Part shown: positions 8,857 through 58,862 of the stretch, one piece after another
Numbering within the stretch: position 1 is the stretch's first letter
Layout of the letters: each line of letters begins with the position of its first letter
Made by a program: the position numbers and the translations under genes
The notes under the pieces: model-generated
What the model was told of the DNA's origin: nothing
Seen by the model: only the letters and a program-made list of their open reading frames with translations
Databases searched by the model: none
From: a virus
Taxonomy: Duplodnaviria > Caudoviricetes
Reading direction: 5' to 3' (one strand)
IMG/VR virus record: IMGVR_UViG_2862611759_000001
DNA length: 64,000 bases

Positions 8857-8991
8857 ATGCCCGACACCGACACCACCACCGACGAGGTGGCCACCCTTCC
8901 TGTCCACGAGGGCACCACGCCCCCGGAGGGCCAGGTGCGCGGGATGGCCACCGACGACGACCTCGCCGACGCCGAGCGGGGGAACGCCTGA
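8857..8991 (+). CDS. Small acidic protein (44 aa) coupled to the endolysin
   Basis: GGAG RBS. Stop overlaps the endolysin ATG (TGATG). Confidence 0.5.
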   Translation: MPDTDTTTDEVATLPVHEGTTPPEGQVRGMATDDDLADAERGNA

Positions 8992-10052
8992 TGGCCCGGA
9001 TGCCCGGCGCCACCTGGCGCCCCGTCCCGAACTACACGCCGAACGGCCAGCTCGAGGTCCGCGGCCTCGTCGTGCACATCATGGACGGCACCCTCGCGGG
9101 CACCGACGCGTGGTTCCGCAACCCGGCCTCCCAGGCCTCCTCCCACTTCGGCACCAGCCGTGACGGCCGGCTCTACCAGTGGATCGACACCCAGCACCGA
9201 GGCTGGGCCCAAGCCGGCGGGAACAAGAGCTGGCTGTCGATCGAGGACGAGGGGCGCGGCGGCCAGTCGCTCACCGAGCAGCAGCTCGACCGCGTCGCGG
9301 AGGTCTTCGCCTGGGTCGTGAAGACGTACGACGTCCCGCTCAAGGTGGCGACCGGCCCCGACGACCGCGGACTCGGCTACCACGCCATGGGCGGCAAGGC
9401 CTGGGGCGGGCACACCTCCTGCCCCGGCGCGAAGATCGTGGCCCAGCTCGACGAGATCGTGAAGCGCGCCGCAGCGATCGTCGGGAAGAAGCCCACCCCG
9501 GGGACCGGCGGCGGCTCGAAGACCCCCGCCCGCTACCAGGCCAGCATCAACGGGCTGAAGTACGGCTACGGCGCCACCGGCGGCCACATCACCAAGGTGG
9601 GCCAGGCCCTCGTCGCCCGCGGCTTCGGGAAGCACTACAAGTCCGGGCCCGGCCCGACCTGGTCCGACGCCGACACCCTGAACTACCAGGCCTTCCAGCG
9701 CTCTCTCGGTCTCACGGGCGCGGCCGCCGACGGCGTCCCGGGGGAGGGGAGCCTGAAGAAGCTCCTCGGCACCCTGCCTGGCAAGGCTCCGTCCGCGCCG
9801 AAGTACGCGCCGTTCCCGGGCGCCGGATTCTTCAGCCCCGGCCGGCGTTCCGAGCTCATCACCCTGATGGGCCGCCGACTCGTCGCCGAAGGCTGCTCCG
9901 CGTACGCCGTCGGCCCCGGCGACCACTGGACCGAGGCCGACCGGCTCTCATACGCCAAGTGGCAGCGGAAGTGCGGCTTCTCCGGCGCCGACGCCAACGG
10001 CATCCCGGGCCCCACGACCTGGGCCGCCCTCAAGGTCCCCCAGCCCCTCTGA
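8991..10052 (+). CDS. Endolysin: N-acetylmuramoyl-L-alanine amidase with two peptidoglycan-binding domains
   Basis: Amidase_2 motifs (LVVHIM, ASSHF, WAQAGGN, SIEDEG, GYH...HTSCPG) and two PG_binding_1-like repeats (ADGVPG, ANGIPGPTTW). Confidence 0.9.
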   Translation: MARMPGATWRPVPNYTPNGQLEVRGLVVHIMDGTLAGTDAWFRNPASQASSHFGTSRDGRLYQWIDTQHRGWAQAGGNKSWLSIEDEGRGGQSLTEQQLDRVAEVFAWVVKTYDVPLKVATGPDDRGLGYHAMGGKAWGGHTSCPGAKIVAQLDEIVKRAAAIVGKKPTPGTGGGSKTPARYQASINGLKYGYGATGGHITKVGQALVARGFGKHYKSGPGPTWSDADTLNYQAFQRSLGLTGAAADGVPGEGSLKKLLGTLPGKAPSAPKYAPFPGAGFFSPGRRSELITLMGRRLVAEGCSAYAVGPGDHWTEADRLSYAKWQRKCGFSGADANGIPGPTTWAALKVPQPL

Positions 10053-17189: not shown

Positions 17190-18188
17190 ATGGCCACGGC
17201 CACCGAGGCCCCCGCCAGCAAGACGGCGGAGGGTCCGACCCAGCACGTCCCGAACCAGCGCGAAGAACTCACCTTCGTGGACGCCACCCGGCCCGCGACG
17301 AACGCCATGATCGCCCTGACCGGCCCGGCCAACGCGGGGAAGTCCTACACCGCCCTGGCCATGGCCGCGGGCATGGGCACGAACATCGGCGTCTGCGACA
17401 CCGAGCGCGGGCGTGCCAGCCACTACGCCAGCCTGTTCCCCTTCAAGCACCTGCGGATGCCGGACTTCCGCCCGCAGACCCTGGTACGGGCGCTCGCCGT
17501 CGGCGCGCGGCAGGGCATCGACGTCATGATCATCGACTCCGGCACGCACTACTGGTCCGGGCGAGGCGGCGTCCTTGAACAGGTCGACCGCACGACCAGC
17601 GCCTCCCGCTCCAACAACGCCTTCACCTCGGGCTGGAAGACCATCAAGCCGGTCGAGCACGAGATGTGGGACGCCGTCATGGCCTACCCCGGTCACGTGA
17701 TCATGACCCTGCGGGTCAAGACGGCGTACGAGCTGGTCACCAATAAGAACGGCGGGGTCGAGCCCAAGAAGGTCGGGCTGAAGCCGGACCAGCGGGCAGA
17801 CGCCGAGTACGAGTTCGACTTCGTCGGCGACCTCGACATGGAACACACCATGACCGTCTCGAAGTGCTCCTACCCGGGCCTGTTCGAGTCCGGCGAGCGG
17901 ATCGAGCTGCCCAACACCGAGACCGGCAACAAGATCGTGCGGTGGCTCAGCGAGGGCACGCCGATGCCCACCGTGCAGGACTACGTCGCCAAGGCCCTGA
18001 ACCCGGAGACGACCTACGAGCAGCTGCTCGCCCTGTACCGGGGCGAGCTGTCCCAGCGAGGCCTCCTGGGCGCTGCCCTGTTCGCCCCGGACACCCAGGA
18101 GCTGACCACTCTCGGCGGGCTGATCAGCCGCATCGGCGGTGCGCGCAAGGCCGCCGCGGACGGGAACGACCACGAGAGGAGTGCCTGA
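17190..18188 (+). CDS. AAA_24 / Sak4-like P-loop ATPase (recombination)
   Basis: Walker A GPANAGKS, DTERG, IIDSGTHYW, EYEFD. Confidence 0.8.
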   Translation: MATATEAPASKTAEGPTQHVPNQREELTFVDATRPATNAMIALTGPANAGKSYTALAMAAGMGTNIGVCDTERGRASHYASLFPFKHLRMPDFRPQTLVRALAVGARQGIDVMIIDSGTHYWSGRGGVLEQVDRTTSASRSNNAFTSGWKTIKPVEHEMWDAVMAYPGHVIMTLRVKTAYELVTNKNGGVEPKKVGLKPDQRADAEYEFDFVGDLDMEHTMTVSKCSYPGLFESGERIELPNTETGNKIVRWLSEGTPMPTVQDYVAKALNPETTYEQLLALYRGELSQRGLLGAALFAPDTQELTTLGGLISRIGGARKAAADGNDHERSA

Positions 18189-19939
18189 TGCCGCCCCAGA
18201 TGCTGAAGAAGCGCCGTACCGCCACACATCGCCCGGCCGTCAGGCGCCGCCGGTTCCGCCACGACGAGGTGACGGCGGTCGACCTGTTCTCCGGCTTCGG
18301 GGGACTGACCAAGGGCCTCTCCCTGGCCGGTGTCACGACGATCATGGCGGCGAACCACAACGCCTACAAGGTCGAGGTCCACGAGGCGAACCACCCCGAG
18401 GCCGAGCACTGGATCGCCGACCTGGTCGACCCGGAGGCCGCGGACTACCACTCGGCCCGGGACCTTCCCCCTGCCGACTTCCTGGCGGCCGGCGTGAGCT
18501 GCGTGAACCACTCCCAGGCCAACACGATCAAGGCGTACGAGCAGGGCGTGGGCCTGTTCGAGCTGGAGGACCCCGACTACGAGGCGCGCGTCACCCGCTC
18601 CGAGCGGGACCGGGCCACCGCGAACTGCGTGCTGCACTACGCCGCGCAGCACCGCCCCCGGCTGATCCTCGTCGAGTGCACGACCGAGCTGACCTCATGG
18701 GGCCCCGCAGTCCAGGGCCGCCGGAAGGTGGGCGACGGGTCGACGTACCGCTGGTGGCTGAAGCAGTTCGACATCCTCGGCTACAACCACAAGGTCCTGT
18801 ACCTCAACAGCCAGTTCTTCGGGGTGCCGCAGTCCCGCGACCGGGCCTACTGGGCGTTCTGGGACCGGTCCCTGCCCACGCCGGACCTGGAGCACCGTCC
18901 GGTGTCCCACTGCCTGCACTGCGACAAGGACGTCGAGGCCGTGTGGACCTGGCGCACGGGTATCCCGCCGACCGGGTCGGTGCGCTACGGCAAGCAGTAC
19001 GAGTACCGGTGCCCGAGCTGCCGCCGGCCGGTCGTCCCGCCGATGACGCCGTCGCTGGCCGCGCTGGACCTGAGCACGCTCGGCACCCGGATCGGGGACC
19101 GGCCCAGGCCGCTCGCGGCCGCGACGATGGCGCGCGCGGAACGCTGCCGCCAGCGGTTCGCCGACTTCCCGGCCGTCCTCATGCCCGCCAAGGCCGTTTA
19201 CGGCTCCGAGCGGCATCCCTGGCAGCCGCTGGCGACCCAGACCAGCCAGCAGGAGACGTCGATCCTCTCGACCGGCGCCATCATGGCCGCGGCCGGGAAC
19301 ACCTTCGAGCGGCCCGGCTCCAACTGCCGCTCGCGGGGCTTCGACGAACCCCTGTGGGCACAGCCGGCCACCAACACCACCGGCATCATCACCCCGCCCA
19401 TCGCGCTCGCCGTGGACAACTACCAGGGCGGTCCGCGCGGCGCCGGGGAGCCCCTGCCCACCCAGGTCGGCTCGGAGACCCTCGCCGTGGTGTCCTCCGG
19501 GATCATCCCGTTCCGCAAGAACACGGTCCCCACCGTGCACGGCGAGGCCATGCCGACGTTCACCTCCGACCAGATCCCCGGCCTGCTCACCGCGGCCGGC
19601 TGGTTCAAGCAGAACGGGCCCCTCGGCAACGAGACCGCACCGCACCCGCTGCTCGACCCGCTCGGCACCCTCACCACCCGCGACACCACGGCACTGCTCA
19701 CGGCCGAGTGGCGGGCATCCCTGGCCGACCTGCCGCTGGAGGAGTGCTACTTCCGCATGATGGCCGCCCACGAGGTCGGCCGCGGCTGCGGCTTCGACGT
19801 CGACTTCGCCGACTACAGCGGCACCTTCAAGGTCTGGGGCTCAGCCCGCAACCAGGTCGACGGCTTCGGCAACGCCGTCTCCCCCCAGGTAGGCGCCTGG
19901 ATCGGCACCCGCCTGCGCGCCATCCTCCACGCCGCCTGA
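18188..19939 (+). CDS. DNA (cytosine-5) methyltransferase
   Basis: Motif I DLFSGFGG, motif IV variant AGVSC, VEC, GVPQSRDR, terminal GNAV. Inserted CxxC pairs. Confidence 0.85.
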   Translation: MPPQMLKKRRTATHRPAVRRRRFRHDEVTAVDLFSGFGGLTKGLSLAGVTTIMAANHNAYKVEVHEANHPEAEHWIADLVDPEAADYHSARDLPPADFLAAGVSCVNHSQANTIKAYEQGVGLFELEDPDYEARVTRSERDRATANCVLHYAAQHRPRLILVECTTELTSWGPAVQGRRKVGDGSTYRWWLKQFDILGYNHKVLYLNSQFFGVPQSRDRAYWAFWDRSLPTPDLEHRPVSHCLHCDKDVEAVWTWRTGIPPTGSVRYGKQYEYRCPSCRRPVVPPMTPSLAALDLSTLGTRIGDRPRPLAAATMARAERCRQRFADFPAVLMPAKAVYGSERHPWQPLATQTSQQETSILSTGAIMAAAGNTFERPGSNCRSRGFDEPLWAQPATNTTGIITPPIALAVDNYQGGPRGAGEPLPTQVGSETLAVVSSGIIPFRKNTVPTVHGEAMPTFTSDQIPGLLTAAGWFKQNGPLGNETAPHPLLDPLGTLTTRDTTALLTAEWRASLADLPLEECYFRMMAAHEVGRGCGFDVDFADYSGTFKVWGSARNQVDGFGNAVSPQVGAWIGTRLRAILHAA

Positions 19940-31450: not shown

Positions 31451-31923
31451 CCACCAGCACCCACGCCGCCCCCGCGCCGATACCCGTCCGCCCCCACCCC
31501 GCCGCCGACCACCGGCCGTTCATCACCGAGGCGCAGACGGCCGCGTACACCGCCGCCCTCCGCGCCGGAGTCACCCGCCTCACCATCACCGGCTGGGAGC
31601 AGCAGGCCGACGGCTCCCTCCTCCAGATCCTCCCCACCGGCGCCGCCCTCGCCTACAGCCCCGGCACCCCCCTCACCGCACTCACCCCCTGCGCGGCCGG
31701 CGTACGGCACCCGCACCCCGTCGCCACCCTCGCCGACCTCCGCAACGCCCAGGCCGACGCCGCCGCCTGCACCTCGGCCCACCGGCCGCCCACACGGCCC
31801 GAGCCGACGCCCGCCGTCCGGCCCCTCGCCGACGCCTTCCCCCACGGCCCCGGCGCGGACACCCAGCCCCTCGACGTCACCACCCTCCGCGCCGACCACG
31901 CCCAGGAGCACTCCCATGGCTGA
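31447..31923 (+). CDS. Hypothetical protein
   Basis: Coupled start, GGAG RBS. Confidence 0.5.
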   Translation: MTTSTHAAPAPIPVRPHPAADHRPFITEAQTAAYTAALRAGVTRLTITGWEQQADGSLLQILPTGAALAYSPGTPLTALTPCAAGVRHPHPVATLADLRNAQADAAACTSAHRPPTRPEPTPAVRPLADAFPHGPGADTQPLDVTTLRADHAQEHSHG

Positions 31924-32908
31924 CACCACCACCATCGAGTGGACCGACCGCACCTGGAACCCGACGACGGGCTGCACCCAGATCTCGGCCGGCTGCGACC
32001 ACTGCTACGCCAAGACCATCGCCGAGCGCTTCCGCGGCACCGCCGCTTTCCCCCACGGATTCGACGTCCGCATCCGCGACGAGAAGGTCAACGCCCCGCT
32101 CTCCTGGCGGCGCCCGGCGAAGGTCTTCGTCAACTCCATGTCGGACCTGTTCCACCAGGACGTCGACGAGGCCTGGATCGCGAACATCGTTGCCGTCATG
32201 GCCGCCGCCCGCCGCCACACCTTCCAGCTCCTCACCAAGCGGCACGCCCGCATGCGGTCCCTGTTCACCGACCCGAACTTCACCGCCCAGGTGTGTACGC
32301 TCGCCCGCGGCAAGGGTCTCCCCGACGCCGACTGGGCCTGGCCCCTGCCCAACCTGTGGCTCGGCGTGTCTGTCGAGAACCAGCAGTGGGCGGACATCCG
32401 CGTCCCCGTCCTCCTCGGCACCCCCGCCGCCGTCCGCTGGATCTCCGCCGAACCCCTCCTCGGCCCCGTCGACCTCCACCCGTGGCTCAAGCGCCCCCAG
32501 CTCCCCGCCTGCGTCCGCTGCGCCCCGCTCGGCCCCGTCGACTACCACGACAGGCACGTCTGGGGCCGCTGCTCCTGCTCCTGCCACCCCGCCTCCCGCC
32601 CCGGCGTCGACTGGGTCGTCGCCGGGGGCGAGTCCGGGCACGGCGCCCGCCCCGCGCACCCCGACTGGTTCCGCACCCTCCGCGACCAGTGCGCCGCCGC
32701 CCACGTCCCGTTCCTGTTCAAGCAGTGGGGCGACTACGCGCCCACCGGCTACCTCGTCATCGGCGGCCCCCGCGAGAAGGGCAACATCGCCTTCGGCGAC
32801 CCCGTCGACGACCTCGGACACCGCGTCGAGATGAAGCGCGCCGGCAAGAAGGCCGCCGGCCGCGACCTCGACGGCCGCATCCACGACGACTACCCGGTCG
32901 GTGCGTGA
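31916..32908 (+). CDS. Phage Gp37/Gp68 (DUF5131) family protein
   Basis: IEWTDRTWNPTTGCTQISAGCDHCYA, FVNSMSDLFH, LLTKR, WVVAGGESG, FKQWG. Confidence 0.9.
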   Translation: MADTTTIEWTDRTWNPTTGCTQISAGCDHCYAKTIAERFRGTAAFPHGFDVRIRDEKVNAPLSWRRPAKVFVNSMSDLFHQDVDEAWIANIVAVMAAARRHTFQLLTKRHARMRSLFTDPNFTAQVCTLARGKGLPDADWAWPLPNLWLGVSVENQQWADIRVPVLLGTPAAVRWISAEPLLGPVDLHPWLKRPQLPACVRCAPLGPVDYHDRHVWGRCSCSCHPASRPGVDWVVAGGESGHGARPAHPDWFRTLRDQCAAAHVPFLFKQWGDYAPTGYLVIGGPREKGNIAFGDPVDDLGHRVEMKRAGKKAAGRDLDGRIHDDYPVGA

Positions 32909-36144: not shown

Positions 36145-36903
36145 ATGGCCACGTACGCGACCGCCCAGAACATCGGGCTGCGCTCCCACCAGTGCGACGC
36201 CACCGCCGTGTTCACCGCCCCCGACGGCACCACCGCATACGCACTCCTCGACGGCATCGGCTCCACGCCCACCATCCGGGACTGGACCCGCACGGCCGCC
36301 CGGAGCCTCGCCCGCGCCGCCGCCCGCACCGGCGACGCCGAGCACGGCCTGCGGACCGAGTACCTGCGCTACGCCGCCGAGCCGGACAGGAACGACCCTT
36401 TCACCCGCGACGGGATGCCCGCGGCCGCCGCCGTCGTCGCCGTCACCGCGCCCGGCGCGCGCCTCTCCCTCGCCTGGTGCGGCGACTCCCGCGCCTACAC
36501 CCTCACCCCCGACGGCCCCGCCATCCGCCTCACCCGCGACCACAACCTCCGCCGCGTCTGGCCGCCCCAGAACGGCCACCGCGGCGGGAACCGCAACGTC
36601 ATCACCTCGTACCTCGGCAGCACCCTCACCGAAGGCGAGTGCACTGAGCACTTCGGACACCCGCCCATCGAGACCCACACCCTGCCGCCCGGCCCCGTCC
36701 GGCTGCTCCTCGCCTCCGACGGCGCCTACGAACCGTACGAGGACGCCGAGCAGGACCTCGCCCCGCTGCTCACAGGCCCCAGCCTGCGCAGCCTCGCCCG
36801 CAAGTTCGCCGACGGCGCCGTCAAGACGTCGCTCGCCGCCCGCCCGGACAACCCGTACGCCGACAACGCCACCGTCCTCATCGCCGACATCCCCACCACC
36901 TGA
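36145..36903 (+). CDS. PP2C/PPM-family Ser/Thr protein phosphatase
   Basis: LLDGIG, WCGDSRAY, LTRDHN, LLASDG and DNAT motifs. Confidence 0.85.
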   Translation: MATYATAQNIGLRSHQCDATAVFTAPDGTTAYALLDGIGSTPTIRDWTRTAARSLARAAARTGDAEHGLRTEYLRYAAEPDRNDPFTRDGMPAAAAVVAVTAPGARLSLAWCGDSRAYTLTPDGPAIRLTRDHNLRRVWPPQNGHRGGNRNVITSYLGSTLTEGECTEHFGHPPIETHTLPPGPVRLLLASDGAYEPYEDAEQDLAPLLTGPSLRSLARKFADGAVKTSLAARPDNPYADNATVLIADIPTT

Positions 36904-43962: not shown

Positions 43963-44892
43963 CTACGCGGTCTTCCGGCGGCCTGCCGGGGCCGCCGTCT
44001 TCTTCGCCGCCGTCTTCTTCGCGGGGGCCTTCTTGGCCGCGGCCTTCTTCTTCGGCTTCGGCATCTCGTGCACCGTGCCCGGCCCTGCGTCATCGCCGCG
44101 CGACTCCCGCGCCTTCGCGACGGACTCCTCCAGCGCGGCCATCAGGTCCACCACGGGCGCCGCCGGCGCCTCCTCGCCCTCCACGGCCACGGGTGCCCGG
44201 TGCTCGGCCTTCGCGTTGATCACCTCGATCAGGGCATCGGTGTACCGGTCGGTGAGCTGCTCACCGAGGTCGTCGAGGTGCTCGGTGCTCATCGTGTCCA
44301 TCAGCGCGAGCGCCCGCTCGACCTCGTCCTCGGTCAGGTCGGTGTCGGGCGGGACGAGCTCGGCGGGCGAGCGGATCTCGTCGCCCCAGTGCAGACCCTG
44401 CAGGAGCAGCGCGTCGCCCATGGGGCGCAGGATGCCGAGGCGCTCGCGGCCGCGGAGCGCGAACTTCGCCACGGCCGCCTTCTCCGTACGCTCCAGGGCC
44501 TTGCGCAGCAACACGTACGGTTTCGCGGCGACGGGGCCGTCGGCGGCCAGGTAATAGGCGCCCGCGCCGTACTGGGTGGCGTCCACGGTGTCGGAGTCGA
44601 CGAAGGCAACGATCTCGATCGCTTTCGCGGTCGGCAGCGGCATCCCGTCCAGGTCGGCGTCGGTGATCGGGACGATCTGGTCCTTGGAGATCTCGTAGCC
44701 CTTGCCGATCTGGTCCTCGCGCAGCTCCTCGCCGTCGACCTCGCAGACCTTCCGGTAGCGGACGCGGCCACCGTCGGGGAGGTGAATCTGGCGAAAGGCG
44801 ACGCTGTGCGACTCGGTAGCCGGCTCCAGGGCCACGGGCACCGTGACCAGGCCGAACGAGATCGCACCCTTCCAGATCGGGCGGGCAGGCAC
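43963..44892 (-). CDS. ku: Ku DNA end-binding protein
   Basis: RPIWKGAISFGLVTVPV, IGKGYE, KPYVLLRKAL, VVDLMAALEESV, AKK-rich tail. Confidence 0.95.
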   Translation of the reverse strand: MPARPIWKGAISFGLVTVPVALEPATESHSVAFRQIHLPDGGRVRYRKVCEVDGEELREDQIGKGYEISKDQIVPITDADLDGMPLPTAKAIEIVAFVDSDTVDATQYGAGAYYLAADGPVAAKPYVLLRKALERTEKAAVAKFALRGRERLGILRPMGDALLLQGLHWGDEIRSPAELVPPDTDLTEDEVERALALMDTMSTEHLDDLGEQLTDRYTDALIEVINAKAEHRAPVAVEGEEAPAAPVVDLMAALEESVAKARESRGDDAGPGTVHEMPKPKKKAAAKKAPAKKTAAKKTAAPAGRRKTA

Positions 44893-44970
44893 CGTAGCGC
44901 TCCTCCAGGACGCCCCCCCCTGGGCTCTAGGCCCAGGCTATGCAGACCGGCGCCGTGATCGCACCCGCCG

Positions 44971-45654
44971 TCAGCCGACCGGGACCAGGACGGCCGCGTC
45001 GTACTGCCCGACAGCCCAGGGCAGCATCTCGCAGGCCAGGAGGAACCAGTCGTTGTACCGGCGCAGGTCCCACTCGTGCACCGGGAAGGAGAACTCCTGG
45101 TAGTCGCCCCTTCCGAAGGTGGACGTCGGCCTGTGGGCGTCGACGAGCGCCTCGAACCGGCCGAGCGAGCGCATCAGGTCCGCCTCGGTGCTGAAGTCCG
45201 CGCCGGACCAGTCCGAGGACAGCCACTCCTCGGCTTCCTCGGCCGAGACGTGGTCGTACGCCTTGACCGCAGCCTCCACGGCCTCCCGCACGTACGCCTC
45301 GGCCCGCTCGGCGTCGTACTTCATGACCTCGGCGCCGGAGCCGGGCACCAGCTTCTCCGCCCAGTACACGGGGTCGACGCCTTCGTCGGGCGAGGAAGGT
45401 CGGAAGAGATCGAACATGTCCTCGGTGCGGGTGAAGGACCAGCAGCCGAGCCCGCCCCGCAGGATCAGCGCGCCGGGCCAGGTGAGGATCTCGCACCACT
45501 CCCAGGACGACTTCGGGAACCGGAAGGCCAAGTGCCGGTAGACCCCCTCGTCCTTCACAAGGGTCATCGTCGCGCCCACGGAGTCGGAGGCGAACCGCTC
45601 CCTGGCCGCCTCCTTCTGCCGCCGCAGTTCCACGTACGGGTCGATCTCGCTCAC
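44971..45654 (-). CDS. Hypothetical phage protein
   Basis: DEGVYRHLAF...ILTWPGAL..G...DMFDLFR...YWAEKL. Confidence 0.7.
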   Translation of the reverse strand: MSEIDPYVELRRQKEAARERFASDSVGATMTLVKDEGVYRHLAFRFPKSSWEWCEILTWPGALILRGGLGCWSFTRTEDMFDLFRPSSPDEGVDPVYWAEKLVPGSGAEVMKYDAERAEAYVREAVEAAVKAYDHVSAEEAEEWLSSDWSGADFSTEADLMRSLGRFEALVDAHRPTSTFGRGDYQEFSFPVHEWDLRRYNDWFLLACEMLPWAVGQYDAAVLVPVG

Positions 45655-45772
45655 CTGAAAGCCCCTCCCTGCACTGGCCCGTCCCGGTCGACGGGCCCCG
45701 CGCCCTACAACGAGCCAGCCCGGATTCGGTGGCGAACAGGGCTGGGCGCCACCCAGCCCGGGCGCACCCGGG

Positions 45773-46036
45773 CTACCGGCCGGTGACGCGGACTCGCAGC
45801 TCGTAGGGGACGCCCGTGCTGATCGCCTGCGCCTGCTCGGCCAGGTCTGCCGGGGTGAAGCCGAGGAGGGCCCGGTCGGCGGCCGCGCGCAGCAGCGGCA
45901 CGATCTCAGCGGCAGGCCGGCCGCGGTATGTGGCGGCGAGCTCTGCGTAGGCCCGCTGGTAGGGGTGGACGTGCGTGCTCGCGGGGTCCGCGAGGAGGTG
46001 GTCGAGGTGCTCCGGCGTCACGCTGATCTGGCCCAT
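45773..46036 (-). CDS. Hypothetical protein
   Basis: GGAG RBS. Confidence 0.55.
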   Translation of the reverse strand: MGQISVTPEHLDHLLADPASTHVHPYQRAYAELAATYRGRPAAEIVPLLRAAADRALLGFTPADLAEQAQAISTGVPYELRVRVTGR

Positions 46037-46126
46037 GACCGCTCCGTCCGTCGGCGGGCCGGGCCCATCCCGGCCCCGTTCCCCTCGACGCTACGAGCCG
46101 GGTCTGACATCGCCGCCGGCCGGCGG

Positions 46127-46291
46127 CTACTCGCCGGGCTTGACCTCGACGACCTCGACGTCCGAGACACCGTCCTCGGCGGCCTTCCGCGCCTTGTACG
46201 TCTCAGCGGCCTTCTCGCTGTAGCTGACGACCGACACCTTCCGCTCGTCCTGGCCCTGCTGCGCCCACGTGATCCTGAAGACCTTCTGCAT
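46127..46291 (-). CDS. Small hypothetical protein (54 aa)
   Basis: GGAGG RBS. MQKVFRITWAQQGQDERKVSVVSYSEKAAE...VKPGE. Below the ORF-track length cutoff. Confidence 0.55.
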   Translation of the reverse strand: MQKVFRITWAQQGQDERKVSVVSYSEKAAETYKARKAAEDGVSDVEVVEVKPGE

Positions 46292-46411
46292 CCCTGCGCC
46301 TCCGCTCGGTGTGTGCCCGGCGGCAGCATCGGCTCCTGATGGGCGCCGCCGGGCCCCGACAGAATGTCATCCGGCGCTGACACCGGTCTGCGGGCGCGGC
46401 CATGGCGGCGG

Positions 46412-47287
46412 TCAGCGTCGCCAGACGTTGACCTTCTCGGTCGCCAGGAGCGGGGCGCCGTCTGGCCCTTTCACGTGGGCGGGTACCCAGGTCTGCCTTC
46501 GCAGGGCGCGCTCGGGTCCGTAGGCCTGGTTGCGCCAGTGCCCGGAGACGATCCAGCGGTGCTTGTAGCGGCGGCCGAGGCTGTCCGAGGTGGGGTCTTG
46601 GTCCTGCGCGGTGTACTGCCGGCGCAGGTCGACGACGGTCACGTCCGGTGAAGGCAGTCCGTCACGGCTGTAGGCACGGGAGGTGGGCTTGTCAGCGTGT
46701 TCCCGGGTGCGGTCGATCAACATGGGCTGCTGCATGAGCAGCCAGGCGGCGGCGAGTGCGGCAACGATGGGCTGGGGCAGCTTGGGGTCGACCTCGGCCA
46801 TCGAAAGGGGCTCGGCCGTGATGGGGAGGACGCTGCCGAGGATGGGGATGAGGGGCGGAATCTCCTCGGTGACGAGGGTGAACGGGCGGTCAGCGGTTTC
46901 AGCCACGAGCCGGTTTCTCGACATGAGGAGCCACAGCAGCATGCCGCCGTCGTGGGGGCCCCAGGCGCACGCCTCGACCGGGATTGTCACGCCGTGGGAG
47001 TCGATGGCACCGATGCCGTCCTGCCAGAACAGCAGTCCGGCGGGGGCGGGTCGGTCGCCGGTGGCCCATCGCGCCGCGGCGAGCTGCTCCCCGGAGTGCA
47101 TGGCGAGGGCCGCCATGTCCTGCTGAACCCAGAACAGGTCGGCAACCTCAAGGCAGGAAGCGAGGGCTTTGAGTCCCTCGACGTTGCCGTCGTCCTTGAC
47201 GCCCCTACGCAGAGCCGAAGCCGGGTCGGTGAGGTATCGGACGGTCTGGCGGCGCAGTTTCGGGAGGTGGGAGGGGCGGACGTTCAC
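46412..47287 (-). CDS. Hypothetical protein with basic HW-rich C-terminal motif
   Basis: RWIVSGHWRNQAYGP...WVPAHVKGP. GTGA overlap with the upstream gene. Confidence 0.7.
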   Translation of the reverse strand: MNVRPSHLPKLRRQTVRYLTDPASALRRGVKDDGNVEGLKALASCLEVADLFWVQQDMAALAMHSGEQLAAARWATGDRPAPAGLLFWQDGIGAIDSHGVTIPVEACAWGPHDGGMLLWLLMSRNRLVAETADRPFTLVTEEIPPLIPILGSVLPITAEPLSMAEVDPKLPQPIVAALAAAWLLMQQPMLIDRTREHADKPTSRAYSRDGLPSPDVTVVDLRRQYTAQDQDPTSDSLGRRYKHRWIVSGHWRNQAYGPERALRRQTWVPAHVKGPDGAPLLATEKVNVWRR

Positions 47288-47850
47288 TCGCCGGCCTTGT
47301 CAGTGCGGGCTCCCTGCCCGGGGCGGGTGGCGAGGGCCGTGCGGACGTCCTCGGCGCGGTAGAGGGCCTGGGGACGGCCGGAGCCGGGGTGAGGGTGGTA
47401 TCCGTAGGCGGGCTTCACCTGGAGGCGGGACATCGCCTTGGAGGCGGCCTTGGCGGGCTCCTTGGCCGTGGACTTCAGCTCGTCGCGGCCGATGTCCTCC
47501 AGGGTGAGCGGTTCGTTGCGGTCGACGATGGAGGCCAGGTCGATCTCCTGGACCATCGCGGCGAAGTCCAGGTTGTCGAGTTCGTCGACCGGGTAGCCGT
47601 CGAACTCGTCCTCGGCGGGCTGCCACGGGCCGATGAACTCGTCGCCGCACAGGCTGATGCCGGGCGGGAGGACGGCTTCGATCGCGTCGCGGTACTCGGA
47701 CTGGATACGGGAGAGGGCGCCGGAGGCCTCCAGGAGCTCCTGCCAGTCGCTGTCGCCGCCGTTGATGTAGTCGAGGACGTCGGCGTCGGGGCTGGTGGAG
47801 TAGTTGTTGACGCGGTTGGTCCAGGTGCCGTAGCTGGTGGTGGTGCTCAT
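47284..47850 (-). CDS. Acidic protein with C-terminal putative DNA-binding domain
   Basis: AAGGAG RBS. C-terminal LYRAEDVRTALATRPGQGARTD. Confidence 0.65.
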   Translation of the reverse strand: MSTTTSYGTWTNRVNNYSTSPDADVLDYINGGDSDWQELLEASGALSRIQSEYRDAIEAVLPPGISLCGDEFIGPWQPAEDEFDGYPVDELDNLDFAAMVQEIDLASIVDRNEPLTLEDIGRDELKSTAKEPAKAASKAMSRLQVKPAYGYHPHPGSGRPQALYRAEDVRTALATRPGQGARTDKAGE

Positions 47851-47895
47851 CGTGGTTCTCCTTGGGAGGTGTGATGCGCCTGGCGTTCTCGACAC

Positions 47896-47930
47896 CCATA
47901 ACCTTGCCGTACGTACGGCAAGGTTGTCAA
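47896..47930 (-). promoter_or_regulatory. 26-bp perfect palindrome overlapping a TTGACA promoter
   Basis: AACCTTGCCGTAC|GTACGGCAAGGTT (47900-47925). Minus-strand TTGACA adjacent. Left edge CCATAACCT matches the O1-O5 half-site. Confidence 0.7.
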
Positions 47931-48018
47931 CGGCCTTGCCCTGTCGAACTGTTGGGCGGGATTTTCTCTTGGGATGGGGTCCCTGGAGCCGAGAGTGCGC
48001 CTGCGGAGGCGTGACAAC

Positions 48019-48051
48019 GCCCCCTGGCCGGTCCCTGCGGCAAGGGGGCGG
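48019..48051. terminator. Hairpin downstream of the type III PKS gene
   Basis: CGCCCCCTGGCC...GGCAAGGGGGCG. Confidence 0.5.
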
Positions 48052-48066: not shown

Positions 48067-49134
48067 TCAGGCGCGCCAGGTGCCGCGAAGGGCGGCGGTG
48101 GTGAAGCCGGGGCCGTAGGCGACAAGGAGGCCGGCGGCGCCGTCGGCGGGCGGTTCGGCGTGGGTGCGTTCGAGGACGCGCAGAACGGAGACGCCGCCCA
48201 GGTTGCCCTCGTCGGCGAGGGTGGCGGTGGAGTGCCGGGAGTCGTGTTCGTCGAGGCCGAGGGCTTCTGCGGTGTCGCAGATGATGCGGGGGCTGCCAGG
48301 GTGGATCGCGGCCCAGTCGATGATCCGGTCGGGCCCGAGCCAGTCTAGGACCGTCGGTAGGACGTCGTCGGCGGCGGTGAGCGCGGCCTTCGTGGAGTCG
48401 AAGTGGAGGCCGTCGGCGCCGATGCGGCCGGAGTAGCGGTCGACGCTGTCCGGGAGGACGAACTCCAGGGTGTCCTCGGGGCTGTCGACGGTGAGGCCGG
48501 GGCCGAGGGGGGTGTCGGTGACGATGCAGGCGGAGGCGGAGTCGCCGAACAGCGCCTTGTAGATCATCGCCTCGACGGAGGTGTCGTTGTGGTTGTAGAC
48601 GCTGGAGATGACCTCGGCGGCGACGACCAGGACCCGCGCGCCGGGGTGGGCGGCGATGTGGTCGACGGCGCGGATCAGGGCCTGGGTGCCGCCGGCGCAG
48701 GCCATGGTCGTCAAGGCGATGCGTCTGACGGTGGGCCGCAGGTTCAGCCGGCCTATGAGGTGGATGTCGAGGTTGGGGACGGACCAGCCGGTGGAGTGCG
48801 TGGTGATGACGGCGTCGATGCCGGCATAGCCGTCCGGCCCGCGGCTGAGGTGCGCCGCGTCCAGGGCCCGCGCTGCTGCGTCGGCGGCCATGTCGAGGGC
48901 GTCGGCGAACGCTGTGGTGGCGCGCTGCTCGACGTCGGCGTCGCCGGCCACCGTGGGGGAGTGGAGCGGGCGGGTGAAGTAGCGGGTGTTGACTTTCAGG
49001 CTGGCCATGTAGCGCGGGAGCGCGGCGCGGCGAGGGTAGTCGGGGTGGCGAGTGAGGATGTCCTCGACGATCTCGTCGGTGGTCACCTTGTGAGCGGGGA
49101 GGACGGTGTGGGGTCGGGAGATGTAGACGGGCAC
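48067..49134 (-). CDS. Type III polyketide synthase (chalcone synthase superfamily; RppA/Gcs/PhlD-like)
   Basis: GGAGG RBS and GTG start, 355 aa. Catalytic triad Cys (MACAGG), His (IHPGS), Asn (GNLGG). Also AAEVIS, ALFGDSA, AYGPGFT. Confidence 0.92.
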   Translation of the reverse strand: MPVYISRPHTVLPAHKVTTDEIVEDILTRHPDYPRRAALPRYMASLKVNTRYFTRPLHSPTVAGDADVEQRATTAFADALDMAADAAARALDAAHLSRGPDGYAGIDAVITTHSTGWSVPNLDIHLIGRLNLRPTVRRIALTTMACAGGTQALIRAVDHIAAHPGARVLVVAAEVISSVYNHNDTSVEAMIYKALFGDSASACIVTDTPLGPGLTVDSPEDTLEFVLPDSVDRYSGRIGADGLHFDSTKAALTAADDVLPTVLDWLGPDRIIDWAAIHPGSPRIICDTAEALGLDEHDSRHSTATLADEGNLGGVSVLRVLERTHAEPPADGAAGLLVAYGPGFTTAALRGTWRA

Positions 49135-49244
49135 TTGGGCCTCCGGCACAACAGGGGGTTGGCGTGGGGGGTGGGCACACCGTACGTCACGGTGTGCGGG
49201 GTATTCCCCCTGATCAGGCGGTAGACGGCCCTCGTGATGAGTTG

Positions 49245-50078
49245 TCAGGGGGTCTCGCGGGCGCGGAGGACGGGGACGCGGGTGTGCGCTTTCCTGGCGC
49301 CGGGGTGGTAGATGAGGATGATCAGGCGGGCTCCGGGGGCGGTCATGGGCTGGGCGGCGCACATGGTGACGTGGCCGGGTCCGTGTTCGGCGTGGAGTAT
49401 CGGGCGCTCGTCGCCGTCGGGGTGGATGTGAGCGCCGCCGGCTTCCCAGAGCGGGGCGAGGTCGGGGTCGGCGGCGACTTCCTTCGCGATCTGCAGGAGT
49501 GTTTCGTCGTCGGGGCGTACGGCGAGCGCGGCGCGGAGCTGCGGAAGGACGAGCGGGGCCCAGACGGTGTGCCAGTCCAGGAGGGTGTTGCGGCCGTCGG
49601 GGTCGAGGAGCATCCAGCGCATGGTGTTGCGGGGGATCCGGCCGCCGGGGAAGAGCGACGCCCAGCACTGGTTGTGGGCCAGGAGGTTCCAGGAGGCGTC
49701 GGTGACGTACGCCATGTGCGTGATGCCGTCGACGGCCTCCTGCCAGACGCCGGGGACCTCGAGGCCGGAGGCGGCGGTGAGGGGGCCGGGCGGGTCGCCG
49801 ATGCCGGCGTAGCGGCAGAGGGAGACCCACTCCTGCTCGTTGAGGCCGAAGAGGCGGGCGACCTGGCGGAGGTAGTCGACGGGCGGGTTGGTGTAGCGGC
49901 CGGTCTCCAGGCGGTTGTAGGTGTGCGGCGCGCGGGCGGTGAGTTCGTCGACCTGCTGCTGGGACAGGCCTCGGGCACGCCGGCCCTGGCCGGTTGGCCG
50001 GGTCAGGTCGTGGTCCTCGGGTTTGATCAGGGCCCGGCGTTCCTCAAGAAGCGCCTTAAGCGCCCGCTTATTTATCAT
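49245..50078 (-). CDS. MmyB-family XRE regulator with PAS-like ligand-binding domain
   Basis: LEERRALIKPEDHDL...GRRARGLSQQQV...YNRLETGR HTH. AYVTDASWNLLAHN...NTMRWMLLDP...W...QLR. Confidence 0.85.
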   Translation of the reverse strand: MINKRALKALLEERRALIKPEDHDLTRPTGQGRRARGLSQQQVDELTARAPHTYNRLETGRYTNPPVDYLRQVARLFGLNEQEWVSLCRYAGIGDPPGPLTAASGLEVPGVWQEAVDGITHMAYVTDASWNLLAHNQCWASLFPGGRIPRNTMRWMLLDPDGRNTLLDWHTVWAPLVLPQLRAALAVRPDDETLLQIAKEVAADPDLAPLWEAGGAHIHPDGDERPILHAEHGPGHVTMCAAQPMTAPGARLIILIYHPGARKAHTRVPVLRARETP

Positions 50079-50271
50079 CGCTGTCACTTTCTCCCCGTGT
50101 ACCTTGCATGCGCCGCCTGGAGTGTAATTAGTGGCGCCGTGTTTCGTAATAAAAGCTGCGTGTAGAAAACCAGTGCTTGAACGTACAAGCTGTTGGTCGT
50201 GGGCGCGCTGACCTGCCGGGAAGCTGGGCTGAGCGGCCACATTGCAGTACCGCAGGGCCTGTTGCGAGTCC

Positions 50272-50383
50272 TCTGACGAAATCCGTCAGATCGGAGTCGT
50301 TGGGGCAGCCCTGTTTGCCCTCGCCGAAGCTCCGGCGGGTGCTCCCGGACAGTGCCGTAATCCGTACCGAGGTACGGATTTCG
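50272..50383. promoter_or_regulatory. Inverted repeats upstream of the MmyB-like gene
   Basis: TCTGACG-N5-CGTCAGA (50272) and AATCCGTACC-GA-GGTACGGATT (50359), sharing (CG)AAATCCGT. Confidence 0.45.
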
Positions 50384-50577
50384 CAGCTCGGCACCGTCCG
50401 GTAGCGCCTGCCGGGTTTCGAGAGGGCCCCTGAGACTACGGCCCGGTACCGACATCGCCACGATGCCGCGTCCTCGGTACCGGCCGTGTGATCGGCCGGC
50501 GGCGCGCTCCCCCTTGCGCCGCCTGGTCGGCTGTTGGCCCCGGGCACCTTCGGAACCCACCTTTCGCCCGGGGCCAC

Positions 50578-51528
50578 CTACCTCGTCGCCTCGGCCTCGC
50601 GGATGGCACCCAGCACCTTCAGCGCCGCCAGCTCCTGCAGCGCGGCCGGAAGGGCTGCGGCCCCGTCGACGGTCTCCAGCCCGACGAGGACCCGGCGGAC
50701 GACGTCGTAGCGGGGGTCCTGCCGAGCTCCCGCCCAGTCGACCGCGAGGTCCCCGGTGAGCGGCGCCTCGTCCTGCCGGCTGTCGATGACGGCTTCGAGC
50801 TCGGCGATCCTGCGCTTCGCGCGCGCCATGGCGCGGTCCCACCCCCGCTTGAACGCCTCTTCCTCCTCGTCCTTCGGCAGCTGCTTCAGCCACGGCCGCA
50901 GCTCGTGAGCGGCCGCCCAGTGCTCCCCAGCCCGCGCGGTGTCCTCCTCCTGGAGCTGCTCCAGAGGCAGGAAGTCGTACGCCCGCGACAGGTGGTCGGC
51001 GAGGCGGGCGGTCACCCGGTTCGGGACCGGCCGCGGGGAGCCGGCGTTGTCCGGCAGGAGCTGGAGGAGACGGTGCACGAGCCCGGCCGGGTCGAGCGCG
51101 TGGACCCCGAGGATGTGCCCTCCGAGCTGCTGGTGCGCGCTCTGCCGGGTGCCGCCCTCGGCCGGGTTGGTGTGCCAGTCGCACATCGGGCAGTCGTACC
51201 GCACCCGCTCCTCACGCGCCTCGGCGGCCGCCGGGCCCCCGATGGGCGTCTCGGGCCGCGGCGCGCCTGCGGAGGCGGGCAGCTCGATCTGGAAGTGCGT
51301 CAGCCGGGAGTCGAGCGCGCCCGGCTCCTGGGCCGCGTGCTGAGGCGGCCCGCCCGAGGCGCGGGAGGTGATGGTGCCAGCGTCGGCCAGTCCGTGCTCG
51401 ACGGCGAAGTGGTCGCGCACCATCTGCCCGGTGACCGCCATGTCGTGGTGGACCGGGACGTCCAGGTGCCACGCGCACAGCGGGCAGTAGTGGCGCACCG
51501 TCCCGCCGAGCCAGTCAGAGCCGGTCAT
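50578..51528 (-). CDS. Hypothetical protein with two C2H2-like Zn fingers
   Basis: CPLCAW...HFAVEH and CPMCDW...HILGVH. Confidence 0.6.
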   Translation of the reverse strand: MTGSDWLGGTVRHYCPLCAWHLDVPVHHDMAVTGQMVRDHFAVEHGLADAGTITSRASGGPPQHAAQEPGALDSRLTHFQIELPASAGAPRPETPIGGPAAAEAREERVRYDCPMCDWHTNPAEGGTRQSAHQQLGGHILGVHALDPAGLVHRLLQLLPDNAGSPRPVPNRVTARLADHLSRAYDFLPLEQLQEEDTARAGEHWAAAHELRPWLKQLPKDEEEEAFKRGWDRAMARAKRRIAELEAVIDSRQDEAPLTGDLAVDWAGARQDPRYDVVRRVLVGLETVDGAAALPAALQELAALKVLGAIREAEATR

Positions 51529-51860
51529 GGGGTGGGTCCTTCCTCGTCGGCCTGGGCCGTCTCGTCGTCGTGCAGCTGGTGCTCGTCGCGCGGGTAGCCG
51601 CACGCGCCGGCGCCGAAGAACTGGGCGGCGCACGGGCCGGGGCCCTCGTAGGTGTGGTGGGTGATGAGCCGGTGCTGGCCCTCGCAGCGGCGGATCGCGG
51701 CCAGCACGTCCGTGGCGAGCGTCTCCGCCCACCCGCCGGGCACCATCGGCTGCCCAGACGGCCAGGCCATCTTGACCACCTGCTCCAGCGCCGCCGGGTA
51801 CCGCGGGTCCCGGCGGGTGTCGCCGCGGGCGGCCGGGTTGAAGTCGCTGACCGCGCTCAC
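51525..51860 (-). CDS. Hypothetical protein
   Basis: Coupled overlaps. HTY...C...CG...H. Confidence 0.5.
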   Translation of the reverse strand: MSAVSDFNPAARGDTRRDPRYPAALEQVVKMAWPSGQPMVPGGWAETLATDVLAAIRRCEGQHRLITHHTYEGPGPCAAQFFGAGACGYPRDEHQLHDDETAQADEEGPTP

Positions 51861-52294
51861 GCCGCTTCGCCGGAGCTGTGCATCGGGTCCAGGCCGTCCG
51901 CCGCGCGCTGCCGGTCGACGTGTTTGCGCGCCTTCGCGATCCGCTCGTCCAGGTCCGGCGCTGTGGCCCACTCCAGCAGGACGTCGGCGTGGCAGAGCGC
52001 GCGCGGGGCGCAGGCGCATGCCAGGTCATGCCCGACAAGCAGGGGCAGCCCTGCGAGGATCCGCTCCCGCTTTCGGTCCGCCTCCTCGCTCGTCCACTCC
52101 GCGCGGGAGCCGGCCAGCCACTGCTTGAACGCCGACACCGTGTACTGGCGGGCCTCCGACTCGGTGTAGCTGCGGGCTTCGATCGCGGCGACGACGGTGA
52201 ACGGGTTCCCGAAGCGGCTGGTGCGGTCGACGATCACGCACCCTTCGGGCTTTCGCCATCCGGCGGTGCGGCGGCGCTGGATACGGGACGGCAT
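51857..52294 (-). CDS. DUF4326-family protein
   Basis: RIQRRRTAGWRKP...VDRTSRFGNPF...GHDLACAC...CHADVLL. Possible upstream start at 52417. Confidence 0.8.
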   Translation of the reverse strand: MPSRIQRRRTAGWRKPEGCVIVDRTSRFGNPFTVVAAIEARSYTESEARQYTVSAFKQWLAGSRAEWTSEEADRKRERILAGLPLLVGHDLACACAPRALCHADVLLEWATAPDLDERIAKARKHVDRQRAADGLDPMHSSGEAA

Positions 52295-52400
52295 GGTGGC
52301 TCCTGGCGTGGTCGGGAGGGGGATGGCAGTCTGCCCAACGATCGGGGCGGGGGACGGCGCGGTGCGCTGCGTCTCGAGGGCGCGCAGCCGCGCGTGCGTC

Positions 52401-53180
52401 TCAGGTGTTGTCACCATCGTCCTCCCGTGCCACAAGGCCGTTGACGACCAGCCGGAGGCGGGCGCGCTGCGGGGGCGGGTCTTGGCCGGGGACGGGCCAG
52501 TCGTCGGCGCGGTAGCCGTACGAGGGCGGCTCCCAGGCGTCCCAGTCGTAGGCCCATCGGTAGAGGCTGACCCAGTCGGTGTCGAAGTAGCAGGGGAGCA
52601 GGCCGCCACGGTTCGGGACCGGGTCGGGTGCCGCGTCGTTCTGCGCCTGGACCTGCTCACGAACACGGAGGAGTTGGTCGTGGTGCCGGCTGCAGAACCA
52701 GTGGTTCGTGAGCCAGCCGGTGGCCGGGTCCTTCTCGACGACCTTGTTCTGAGCGGGGGCGCCGCAGACCTTCATGGCGTTGCGGAAGTCCTCGGGGCCG
52801 TCGGGGTGGGGCCGCATCCGGGGGCCGCGGCATACCCGGTCGAGCGGGTCGGTGCCGTGCCGGTAGCCGGGCGGCTCGTAGCGGGGGACGTCATCTCGCA
52901 CCAGCTCGCGCAGGGAGGTACGGCGCCAGTGATGCGGCCGGGTCCCCAGCGCCTTCCCGGTCGCCTTCCAGACCGTGGTGTCGTCGTCGAGGGGGACCAT
53001 GGTGAGGACGTAGGCGATCGTCAGCAGCAGAAACCGGGCCGAGGCGTCGGCGCGCTCGTCCTGGTAGATCCGCTGGGCGTACTCAGCGAACTTCGGGCCG
53101 TCGCCACCGTCTTTGCGCTTCGGCTTCCGCTTCTTCTCCAGCGGCTGGTGAGCGTGGGCCAGGTGCAGGGCTGCTCCCAC
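52401..53180 (-). CDS. Hypothetical protein
   Basis: Part of a contiguous leftward operon. Several Cys/His. Confidence 0.6.
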   Translation of the reverse strand: MGAALHLAHAHQPLEKKRKPKRKDGGDGPKFAEYAQRIYQDERADASARFLLLTIAYVLTMVPLDDDTTVWKATGKALGTRPHHWRRTSLRELVRDDVPRYEPPGYRHGTDPLDRVCRGPRMRPHPDGPEDFRNAMKVCGAPAQNKVVEKDPATGWLTNHWFCSRHHDQLLRVREQVQAQNDAAPDPVPNRGGLLPCYFDTDWVSLYRWAYDWDAWEPPSYGYRADDWPVPGQDPPPQRARLRLVVNGLVAREDDGDNT

Positions 53181-58172: not shown

Positions 58173-58862
58173 GTGTTCGTGATCAAGAACATGGCCCGCG
58201 GCCTCGCCGCGCTCTCCCTCGCCCTCGCCCCGCTCGCCGTCCCGCACACCGCGCTCGCCGCGCCCCAGGCGCCCGGGGCCGCCGTGGTGCTGCCACTTGC
58301 CGAAGCGATCAAGCAGATCCCCGTCGCCGCCGAGTCCCGAGACGGCTACGAGCGGACCAAGTTCAAGCACTGGAACGCCGGCCTGGATCCGGCCGACGGC
58401 TGCAACACCCGCAACGAGGTCCTCCTCGCGGAGGCGATCGAGTCGCCGACGGTCGGGGCCGGCTGCAAGCTGACCGGCGGCCGCTGGTTGAGCTACTACG
58501 ACGGCCAGGAGGTCACCGACCCGGCCAAGCTCGACATCGACCACGTGATCCCGCTCGCCGAGGCCTGGGACTCCGGTGCGAGCGCCTGGACCGCCGCGCG
58601 GCGCGAGGCCTACGCCAACGACCAGGGCGCGGCCAGCTCGCTGGTGGCGGTGACCGCCCGGTCGAACCGGTCGAAGGCAGACCAGGACCCGGCGCAGTGG
58701 ATGCCGCCGGCCCCGGAGGCGATCTGCCGGTACATCGAGGAGTGGACCGCGGGCAAGAGCCGCTGGGGCCTGTCCGCGGACCAGAGCGAGATCGACGCCC
58801 TCAGCGTGTACGCCGACGGCCCGTGTGACGACTCGGTCGTCCACTACACCCCGGCGCCGTAG
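58173..58862 (+). CDS. Secreted HNH/DUF1524-family nuclease
   Basis: Signal peptide, GYER..F.HW, CNTRNEVL, LDIDHVIPLAEAWDSGA, NRSKADQDP. Confidence 0.88.
   Translation: MFVIKNMARGLAALSLALAPLAVPHTALAAPQAPGAAVVLPLAEAIKQIPVAAESRDGYERTKFKHWNAGLDPADGCNTRNEVLLAEAIESPTVGAGCKLTGGRWLSYYDGQEVTDPAKLDIDHVIPLAEAWDSGASAWTAARREAYANDQGAASSLVAVTARSNRSKADQDPAQWMPPAPEAICRYIEEWTAGKSRWGLSADQSEIDALSVYADGPCDDSVVHYTPAP

Follow-up and report, generated by a model that had tools for sequence, protein, structure and literature searches.

A regulator and a type III polyketide synthase as a candidate two-gene accessory unit of pZL12-type Streptomyces phage-plasmids

Introduction

Genes for type III polyketide synthases (PKSs) have been noted on the Streptomyces plasmids pZL12 and pSLE1, where they lie without the neighbours typical of a biosynthetic cluster (PMC4487206). 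A survey of gene clusters in prophages reported type III PKS genes only in those located on plasmids (PMC10023795). The present work concerns such a gene and the regulator gene in front of it on a virus record (IMG/VR IMGVR_UViG_2862611759_000001; Duplodnaviria; Caudoviricetes), of which a stretch of 64,000 nucleotides (nt), termed the window, was analysed. The closest named relative is the phage-plasmid ZL12 (GQ919031), on which pZL12.99 (transcriptional regulator) and pZL12.100 (type III PKS) correspond to the two genes and are arranged alike, in order as well as in orientation. We propose that the two genes form an accessory unit complete in itself, with the PKS under the control of the regulator and the PKS product altering a trait of the carrier cell (lysogenic conversion), an interpretation that we judge a little more probable than its negation.

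ZL12 resembles the element studied here in being a phage-plasmid of approximately 90 kb with ParAB and structural genes of tailed phages. The regulator and the PKS of the window are 70% and 67% identical to those of ZL12, and 65% and 58% identical to those of pSLE1 from S. leeuwenhoekii. The two elements differ in their flanking genes, and at the nucleotide level only the PKS of the window is similar to ZL12. The PKS genes of pZL12 and pSLE1 are already published, whereas a tie to the regulator was not encountered in the literature searched. That literature, with the original pZL12 paper and all supplements outside its scope, reported a function for neither gene and contained no functional study of the PKS or of its link to the regulator.

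Characterised type III PKSs with the same fold (TM-scores of 0.85-0.88) are the germicidin synthase Gcs (3v7i; described in PMC4573997), THNS/RppA (1u0m), and PKS11 of M. tuberculosis (4jao). They have the Cys-His-Asn triad, the Phe of the LFGD motif, and the GPGF loop in common with the PKS of the window. As Gcs and RppA, the latter is a lone enzyme that could make its final product by itself. It differs from Gcs, THNS, and PKS11 by an identity of only 26-29% and by the lack of an adjoining cytochrome P450 or methyltransferase gene. For the regulator, the nearest described counterparts are in the MmyB-like family, with MltR (3pxp) and MmyB from the methylenomycin cluster of SCP1. It has in common with them an XRE helix-turn-helix (HTH) combined with an MLTR domain, a position next to its presumed target, and a location on a mobile Streptomyces replicon. 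MmyB-type regulators usually control a neighbouring gene, and the crystal structure of one of them contained myristic acid in the pocket (PMC3406030).

A further resemblance, restricted to the way the systems work, exists to LuxI/LuxR and to arbitrium (AimP/AimR), in which the gene for a signal or its synthase lies beside that of a ligand-binding transcription factor, here on a temperate element. The regulator-PKS pair is homologous to neither. In arbitrium the signal is a peptide and the receptor acts on a lysogeny regulator; at the present locus only the synthase gene is visible as a target.

The synthase and the regulator

The following features constitute the pair:

48067..49134, minus strand: stand-alone type III PKS, 355 amino acids plus stop (Pfam, PDB alignment, homologue alignment, AlphaFold model)
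49140..49144, minus strand: GGAGG ribosome-binding site of the PKS, eight bases 5' of its GTG; CCGGAGG is kept across loci
49245..50078, minus strand: MmyB-family regulator, 277 amino acids, with an XRE HTH and an MLTR ligand-binding (PAS-like) domain (Pfam)

The PKS starts with the GTG codon at 49134 and scores above the Pfam cutoff of 27 bits with both halves of the fold (Chal_sti_synt_N, 67.9 bits; Chal_sti_synt_C, 30.3 bits). Its catalytic triad, Cys146/His278/Asn311, is in register with the solved enzymes 1u0m and 4jao, and the closest solved enzymes by sequence are THNS (1u0m, E 1e-39) in first place, as well as PKS11 and Gcs. The triad, the Phe of LFGD, and the GPGF loop are invariant in all 29 PKS homologues aligned. 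An AlphaFold model (predicted local distance difference test, pLDDT, 87.7; predicted template modelling score, pTM, 0.91) superimposes on Gcs and THNS with a TM-score of 0.88 at 28-29% identity. The flanking open reading frames (ORFs) scanned encode neither a carrier protein nor any other PKS domain, as befits a stand-alone type III enzyme. The protein stayed far below the NCBIfam thresholds of related subfamilies, with 90.9 bits where DpgA requires 425 and 54-60 bits where the FabH models require 249-292, and it is matched by no PHROG family. Judged by profiles, alignment, and model, it is a genuine type III PKS of a subfamily without a characterised member. As its identity to germicidin synthase, THN synthase, and PKS11 is only 26-29%, the product of the enzyme is not predictable.

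In the regulator, Pfam recognises MLTR_LBD in residues 124-269 (70.8 bits; cutoff 26.3) and HTH_31 in residues 36-87 (34.8 bits). Its start was placed at the ATG at 50078 (MINKRAL), which is supported by the homologues (MNKxAL); an alternative GTG lies at 50087. The gene is co-oriented with the PKS and ends 110 nt upstream of it. A search of PDB sequences with the regulator gave no match at E values up to 0.01, and its AlphaFold model, built from 23 sequences, reached a pLDDT of 59.8, which is too low for a comparison of the PAS-like fold or its hydrophobic cavity with MltR (3pxp). Control of the bldA type was considered: a TTA codon is absent from every PKS examined and from the regulator of the window, and is present in 2 of 25 regulator homologues.

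An earlier note on this DNA, written from the sequence alone, had described an intact stand-alone type III PKS with a Cys-His-Asn triad, and an MmyB-family XRE regulator directly upstream in the same orientation. Pfam, alignment, and model agree on the former at the position given, and the latter was found at 49245-50078 on the minus strand.

The host element

The window corresponds to bases 31689-95688 of a single virus record of 95,688 base pairs (bp), which is rated 100% complete; the G+C content of the window is about 71%. The record encodes a large terminase, a portal, a scaffold, and a major head protein for morphogenesis, together with a tape measure protein of 1,745 amino acids, minor tail proteins, an integrase-like protein, ParB, and ParA. 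Since head and tail genes occur with ParA/ParB on one record, the element is a tailed phage with plasmid partition genes. This combination on one replicon defines the pZL12-type phage-plasmids, a class of approximately 85-100 kb. In a nucleotide search of 50,697 phage records, the Streptomyces phage-plasmid ZL12 was the sole match, restricted to the PKS gene, and the major head protein is 51% identical to its ZL12 counterpart at the amino acid level.

The terminase of the window matches 34 plasmids from Streptomyces/Kitasatospora with 57-79% identity; 33 of them measure 85-94 kb and one 152 kb. The terminase genes of several related plasmids are split or overlaid by genes for homing endonucleases of the HNH or LAGLIDADG type, giving matches in two pieces (H145, H149, H163, H165, H166, H172, and G013).

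Linkage of the two genes

Among species-representative genomes 23 loci were recovered, 21 of which have a full-length PKS, and in all 21 the regulator gene immediately precedes that of the PKS in the same orientation. The two remaining loci are a frameshifted copy carrying both genes and a spurious match of 40 residues. The same order was found in two non-duplicate viral contigs and in three annotated records (ZL12, pSLE1, and the QHH-9511 plasmid). The two genes are separated by 78 to 254 nt in the 25 loci with both gene ends correctly placed. Of the 35 best PKS-bearing plasmids in PLSDB, 32 carry the regulator on the same strand no more than 1.2 kb upstream. The flanking genes vary widely among the loci while the pair persists. 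Pairwise distances of the PKS and the regulator proteins are correlated (r = 0.80, with none of 2000 permutations as high), as is to be expected of genes travelling together.

Among the 34 plasmids carrying a terminase of the pZL12 type, 26 encode both genes, 8 lack both, and no plasmid encodes only one. For five of the eight pair-less plasmids, profile searches of the whole records found neither gene, with positive controls matched in 3/3 and 4/4 cases. The unit is thus gained and lost as a whole. The reading frames from the genome and viral loci are open throughout (23/23 for the PKS, 23/23 for the regulator); the PKS of CP042280, a frameshifted copy, was matched in four pieces.

Strict linkage in all loci with a full PKS and the ratio of 26 plasmids with both genes to 8 with neither bear out the proposal of the earlier note that synthase and regulator act as one functional unit. 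The search for homologous pairs that it had called for was run, and with the pair on 26 of the 34 pZL12-type plasmids the copy in the window is not a one-off insertion.

Distribution on phage-plasmids, other plasmids, and chromosomes

The best 120 PKS protein clusters are all at least 63% identical and, where the source is named, all from Streptomyces. Their longest contig measures 84-108 kb in 43 clusters, is larger in 34, and is short or of unknown size in 43; the PKS family resides largely on contigs sized like these phage-plasmids. Eleven of the genome loci are situated on contigs or plasmids of about 90-102 kb. A terminase is encoded on the same contig in eight of them, and the CP042280.1 plasmid also has one; it is missing from the 102-kb plasmid L011, and L006 stood outside that terminase search.

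Ten loci occupy larger contigs or a chromosome. Seven of these genomes are free of any pZL12-type terminase, and three have one only on other contigs. Six of the loci form a clade (support 99/99) located among genes for TetR, oxidoreductase, GNAT, and acyl-CoA dehydrogenase proteins; five of the six genomes are without a pZL12-type terminase and the sixth (L024) has one on another contig. Large-contig copies outside this clade nest within the two phage-plasmid clades.

Other plasmids contribute as well. In the QHH-9511 plasmid (L002, NZ_CP046906.1) and in the genome holding L011, neither a major head protein nor a terminase of the pZL12 type was found. The former, a 91-kb plasmid with the pair, shares several neighbouring early genes with the window, and its regulator is split across two frames.

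Phage-plasmid clades up to about 40% apart in protein sequence have retained the pair. Given its distribution on phage-plasmids, other plasmids, and chromosomes, the unit is thus a mobile two-gene cassette that has long been kept by the phage-plasmid lineage. The supposed association with phages and plasmids therefore stands in part: the contigs are largely of phage-plasmid size, but chromosomes and other plasmids without these phage genes carry the pair, too.

The spacer between regulator and synthase

Three features were recognised in the spacer:

49202..49221, minus strand: conserved box with a consensus of about TGA(T/G)CAGGGG(G/C)AA, candidate operator of the regulator (alignment of intergenic regions)
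49179..49190, minus strand: extended -10-like element GTGnnnTAnGnT (window version GTGACGTACGGT), predicted PKS promoter, conserved across clades
49175..49197, no strand assigned: 9-5-9 inverted repeat GCACACCGT-N5-ACGGTGTGC, overlapping the -10-like element; specific to this copy and a few relatives

The box of the window contains the palindrome CCTGATCAGG at 49209-49218, which is unique in the window. With a weight matrix derived from 22 loci the box scores 23.4 bits and is the sole strong site in the 95.7-kb element; the next-best site reaches 13.7 bits, and five shuffled genomes peaked at 11.6-17.7 bits. Autoregulation was rejected, the matrix having revealed no second site at the promoter of the regulator itself.

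The promoter region of the PKS is without a good -35 element. A strict scan for the sigma-70 consensus found no promoter, so that the PKS promoter is predicted from conservation alone. If transcription is assumed to start about 7 nt past the -10 element, the centre of the box would fall near -41.5, i.e. at the position of a class II activator.

The 9-5-9 repeat at 49175-49197 had been singled out by the earlier note. It exists, and an arm of that length arose in only 1 of 300 shuffled sequences. As an operator of the family it was rejected, since arms of at least 6 nt are kept in only 5 of the 26 loci scored (the window, L002, L005, L011, and L030).

Selection

The ratio of nonsynonymous to synonymous substitution rates (dN/dS) stays below 0.5 throughout, ranging from 0.07 to 0.49 in the PKS and from 0.03 to 0.28 in the regulator. 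These values are rough because the strong G+C bias at third codon positions compresses dS.

Flanking elements and neighbouring genes

The pair is bordered by the following non-coding elements:

48018..48050, minus strand: G+C-rich hairpin with 13-nt arms and a 7-nt loop, terminator-like without a T run, beginning 17 nt past the PKS stop codon
50079..50208, minus strand: A+T-rich stretch of about 130 nt upstream of the regulator, presumed promoter and leader, conserved in all clades (27 loci aligned)
50209..50534, minus strand: hairpin-bearing non-coding DNA, including 50356-50383, conserved only in the subclade of the window
50535..50576, minus strand: terminator-like hairpin adjoining the stop codon of the upstream gene; relatives show compensatory changes

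Many phage-plasmid copies have a similar hairpin of -21 kcal/mol or stronger behind the PKS, although the z-scores are modest (at most -1.8 in 10 of 27). At four stem positions of the 50535-50576 hairpin (columns 28/69, 34/63, 37/60, and 39/58), two sequences keep the pairing after two-sided changes. This hairpin would separate the regulator-PKS unit from the upstream operon. Upstream regions of their own and hairpins on either side suggest that the two genes are an independently transcribed unit, as is typical of lysogenic-conversion genes.

The approximately 370 nt of non-coding DNA from 50209 to 50577 are conserved in the subclade of the window (8 loci). The further palindromes that had been reported upstream of the pair are present here, e.g. 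at 50356-50383. A search of the upstream non-coding region against Rfam returned no family and one chance-level match to a microRNA, and RNAalifold predicted many hairpins for it with a net covariation term of +0.69, for which no structured RNA is claimed. The stretch from 50209 to 50577 could be a site acting at the DNA level, such as an origin or an array of binding sites.

The flanking ORFs scanned (43966-47895 and 50581-53180) contain no domain of an acyl carrier protein (ACP), P450, methyltransferase, or transporter, in line with the description in the earlier note. Pfam domains were found only in the Ku and DUF4326 proteins, the rest belonging to PHROG families of unassigned function or matching nothing. 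No PADLOC defence model matched the PKS or the regulator, nor any of six further ORFs of the window, of which five flank the pair and one lies about 8 kb off.

Several neighbours deserve mention in their own right. A Ku-family end-binding protein is encoded at 43963-44892 on the minus strand (Pfam Ku, 144.7 bits) in the same leftward gene block, and several relatives (L003, L005, and L016) encode a Ku homologue close to the pair. A perfect 26-bp palindrome (13+13, no spacer) occurs once in the window, within 47900-47930. It shares one base with a perfect TTGACA hexamer of the minus strand, is situated just upstream of the gene at 47284-47895 (minus strand), and could be an operator or a terminator. 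Additional cargo at 18188-19939, 31916-32908, 36145-36903, and 58173-58862 comprises a DNA methyltransferase, a DUF5131 protein, a PP2C-like phosphatase, and a protein bearing a nuclease domain (GmrSD_C/HNH).

Two further layouts were observed on linear plasmids. On L032 (NZ_CP109342.1, S. anulatus; 6800-9952), a PKS homologue with 41% identity stands tail to tail with a TetR-type gene of the ScbR family resembling autoregulator receptors, and lies 1.3 kb from another MmyB-like regulator, a layout that recalls the methylenomycin signalling circuit. On L034 (NZ_CP108296.1; 4953-5789), the one inspected of six plasmids with a regulator homologue but no listed PKS match, the regulator homologue lies beside a small ORF and genes for a DUF3995 protein, a sigma factor, and an SRPBCC protein.

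Discussion

The regulator most likely controls the PKS, as far as can be judged from gene order and conservation. As we see it, the unit that pZL12-type Streptomyces phage-plasmids carry lies between terminator-like hairpins and is equipped with predicted promoters of its own. The regulator would bind a small hydrophobic ligand, and in its ligand-bound form would most likely activate the PKS promoter with its weak -35 region from the box near -41.5. The PKS would then condense host acyl-CoA with malonyl-CoA to a small product of the pyrone, resorcinol, or naphthol type in the carrier cells. We infer the binding to the box, the activation, the class of substrates and product, and the role of the unit from sequence. 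As the unit is inherited, gained, and lost whole and is also found on chromosomes and other plasmids, its product would most likely change a trait of the carrier cell and not the lysis-lysogeny switch.

Several points weigh against this interpretation. What speaks for binding of the box by the regulator is the position and the conservation of the site, and the box is palindromic in only some of the loci. The regulator is co-directional with its presumed target 110 nt downstream, and differs in this from the norm of the MmyB-like family: 15 of 16 MmyB paralogues of S. coelicolor are reported to show a divergent layout (PMC3406030). The run search for sequencing data holding this DNA yielded DNA runs only and no RNA sequencing run. 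Eight of the 34 pZL12-type plasmids manage without the unit. Regulator homologues with 63-65% identity occur on six plasmids without a listed PKS match, one of which was confirmed to be PKS-free by profile search, and on the QHH-9511 plasmid an intact PKS is accompanied by a regulator split across two reading frames. Finally, dN/dS of the PKS is 0.30-0.49 in phage-plasmid copies as compared to 0.07-0.25 in copies on chromosomes or large contigs, and constraint on the phage-plasmid copies may therefore be relaxed.

A different view of the same arrangement is that the pair forms a self-sensing loop, with a diffusible PKS product as the ligand of the regulator and a positive feedback of the LuxI/LuxR kind by which the phage-plasmid gauges its own density and adjusts induction, lysogeny, or host development. 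The strict linkage and co-inheritance of synthase and regulator fit such a loop, as do the ligand-binding domain of the regulator and a box position suited to activate the synthase gene in the manner of autoinduction. The 41%-identity PKS homologue of the S. anulatus linear plasmid, next to a gene of the ScbR-family autoregulator-receptor type and 1.3 kb from an MmyB-like regulator, points in the same direction, and products of the germicidin type, which stand-alone type III PKSs make, influence the germination of spores. MmyB is not known, however, to bind the furans that signal in its own pathway, and the pair is also present in chromosomal settings without a pZL12-type terminase nearby. The wiring argues against the loop as well: the single strong box is located at the PKS, so that no direct connection to lysis or lysogeny genes is seen. 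For the same reason the suggestion of the earlier note that the pair tunes lysis versus lysogeny was not upheld, provided that the box is assigned correctly. That the pair occurs in ordinary chromosomal settings without phage genes favours a trait at the level of the host over a phage-specific signal, and we regard the self-sensing loop as rather unlikely.

The polyketide might also serve as a weapon or shield: by blocking superinfecting phages or rival microbes, or by altering the envelope, it would protect the carrier together with the element. Streptomyces small molecules are known to block phages. The unit looks independently expressed, with a promoter region of its own and hairpins on both sides, and it is retained in about three quarters of the phage-plasmid family. 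On the other hand, no known defence-system model was matched, no gene for resistance, export, or tailoring lies nearby in the ORFs scanned, and no sequence feature points to an anti-phage product, which leaves protection of this kind an unlikely role.

Could the two genes be neighbours without any wiring, the MmyB-like protein regulating the programme of the element and the PKS being a separately expressed passenger? Regulator homologues without a PKS, the intact PKS beside a frameshifted regulator in one plasmid, and the separate conserved upstream region of each gene would agree with this. Yet joint gain and loss (26 plasmids with both genes, 8 with neither, and 0 of 34 with a single one) and the cohesion of the pair while its flanks change, non-phage settings included, make it improbable.

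That the unit is neutral or decaying cargo of no benefit to phage or host, as its absence from 8 of 34 relatives, dN/dS values of up to 0.49 in phage-plasmid copies, and the frameshifted copies (CP042280 PKS in four pieces, QHH-9511 regulator in two) might suggest, is hardly to be expected of genes with a triad invariant in 29/29 homologues, 23 PKS and 23 regulator frames all open, dN/dS below 0.5 throughout, and a pair kept across clades up to about 40% apart in protein.

We therefore return to the accessory unit for lysogenic conversion as the more probable reading: the presence of one operator-like site only, together with the copies on chromosomes, points rather to a trait at the level of the host. 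The observation was confirmed to extend from one copy to a whole lineage, in which the gene pair is annotated but unstudied. Genes for secondary metabolites are very rare in phages, and the PKS matched only ZL12 among the phage records searched; here an enzyme able to act alone and a ligand-sensing regulator are retained by about three quarters of an entire phage-plasmid lineage.

It is improbable, in our estimate, that this family of Streptomyces phage-plasmids makes a diffusible polyketide and reads it through a dedicated MmyB-type receptor. If it does, such signalling would be the first non-peptide system of chemical communication encoded by viruses, and the polyketide could set induction or lysogeny, or keep host spores dormant, according to the number of neighbouring carrier cells. 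As the unit consists of two genes only, pZL12-type carriers are cultivable, and there is a Streptomyces host devoid of type III PKS genes (PMC4573997), what a phage gains from a polyketide is directly testable. The product would be the first for an uncharacterised subfamily of type III PKSs that is widespread in Streptomyces.

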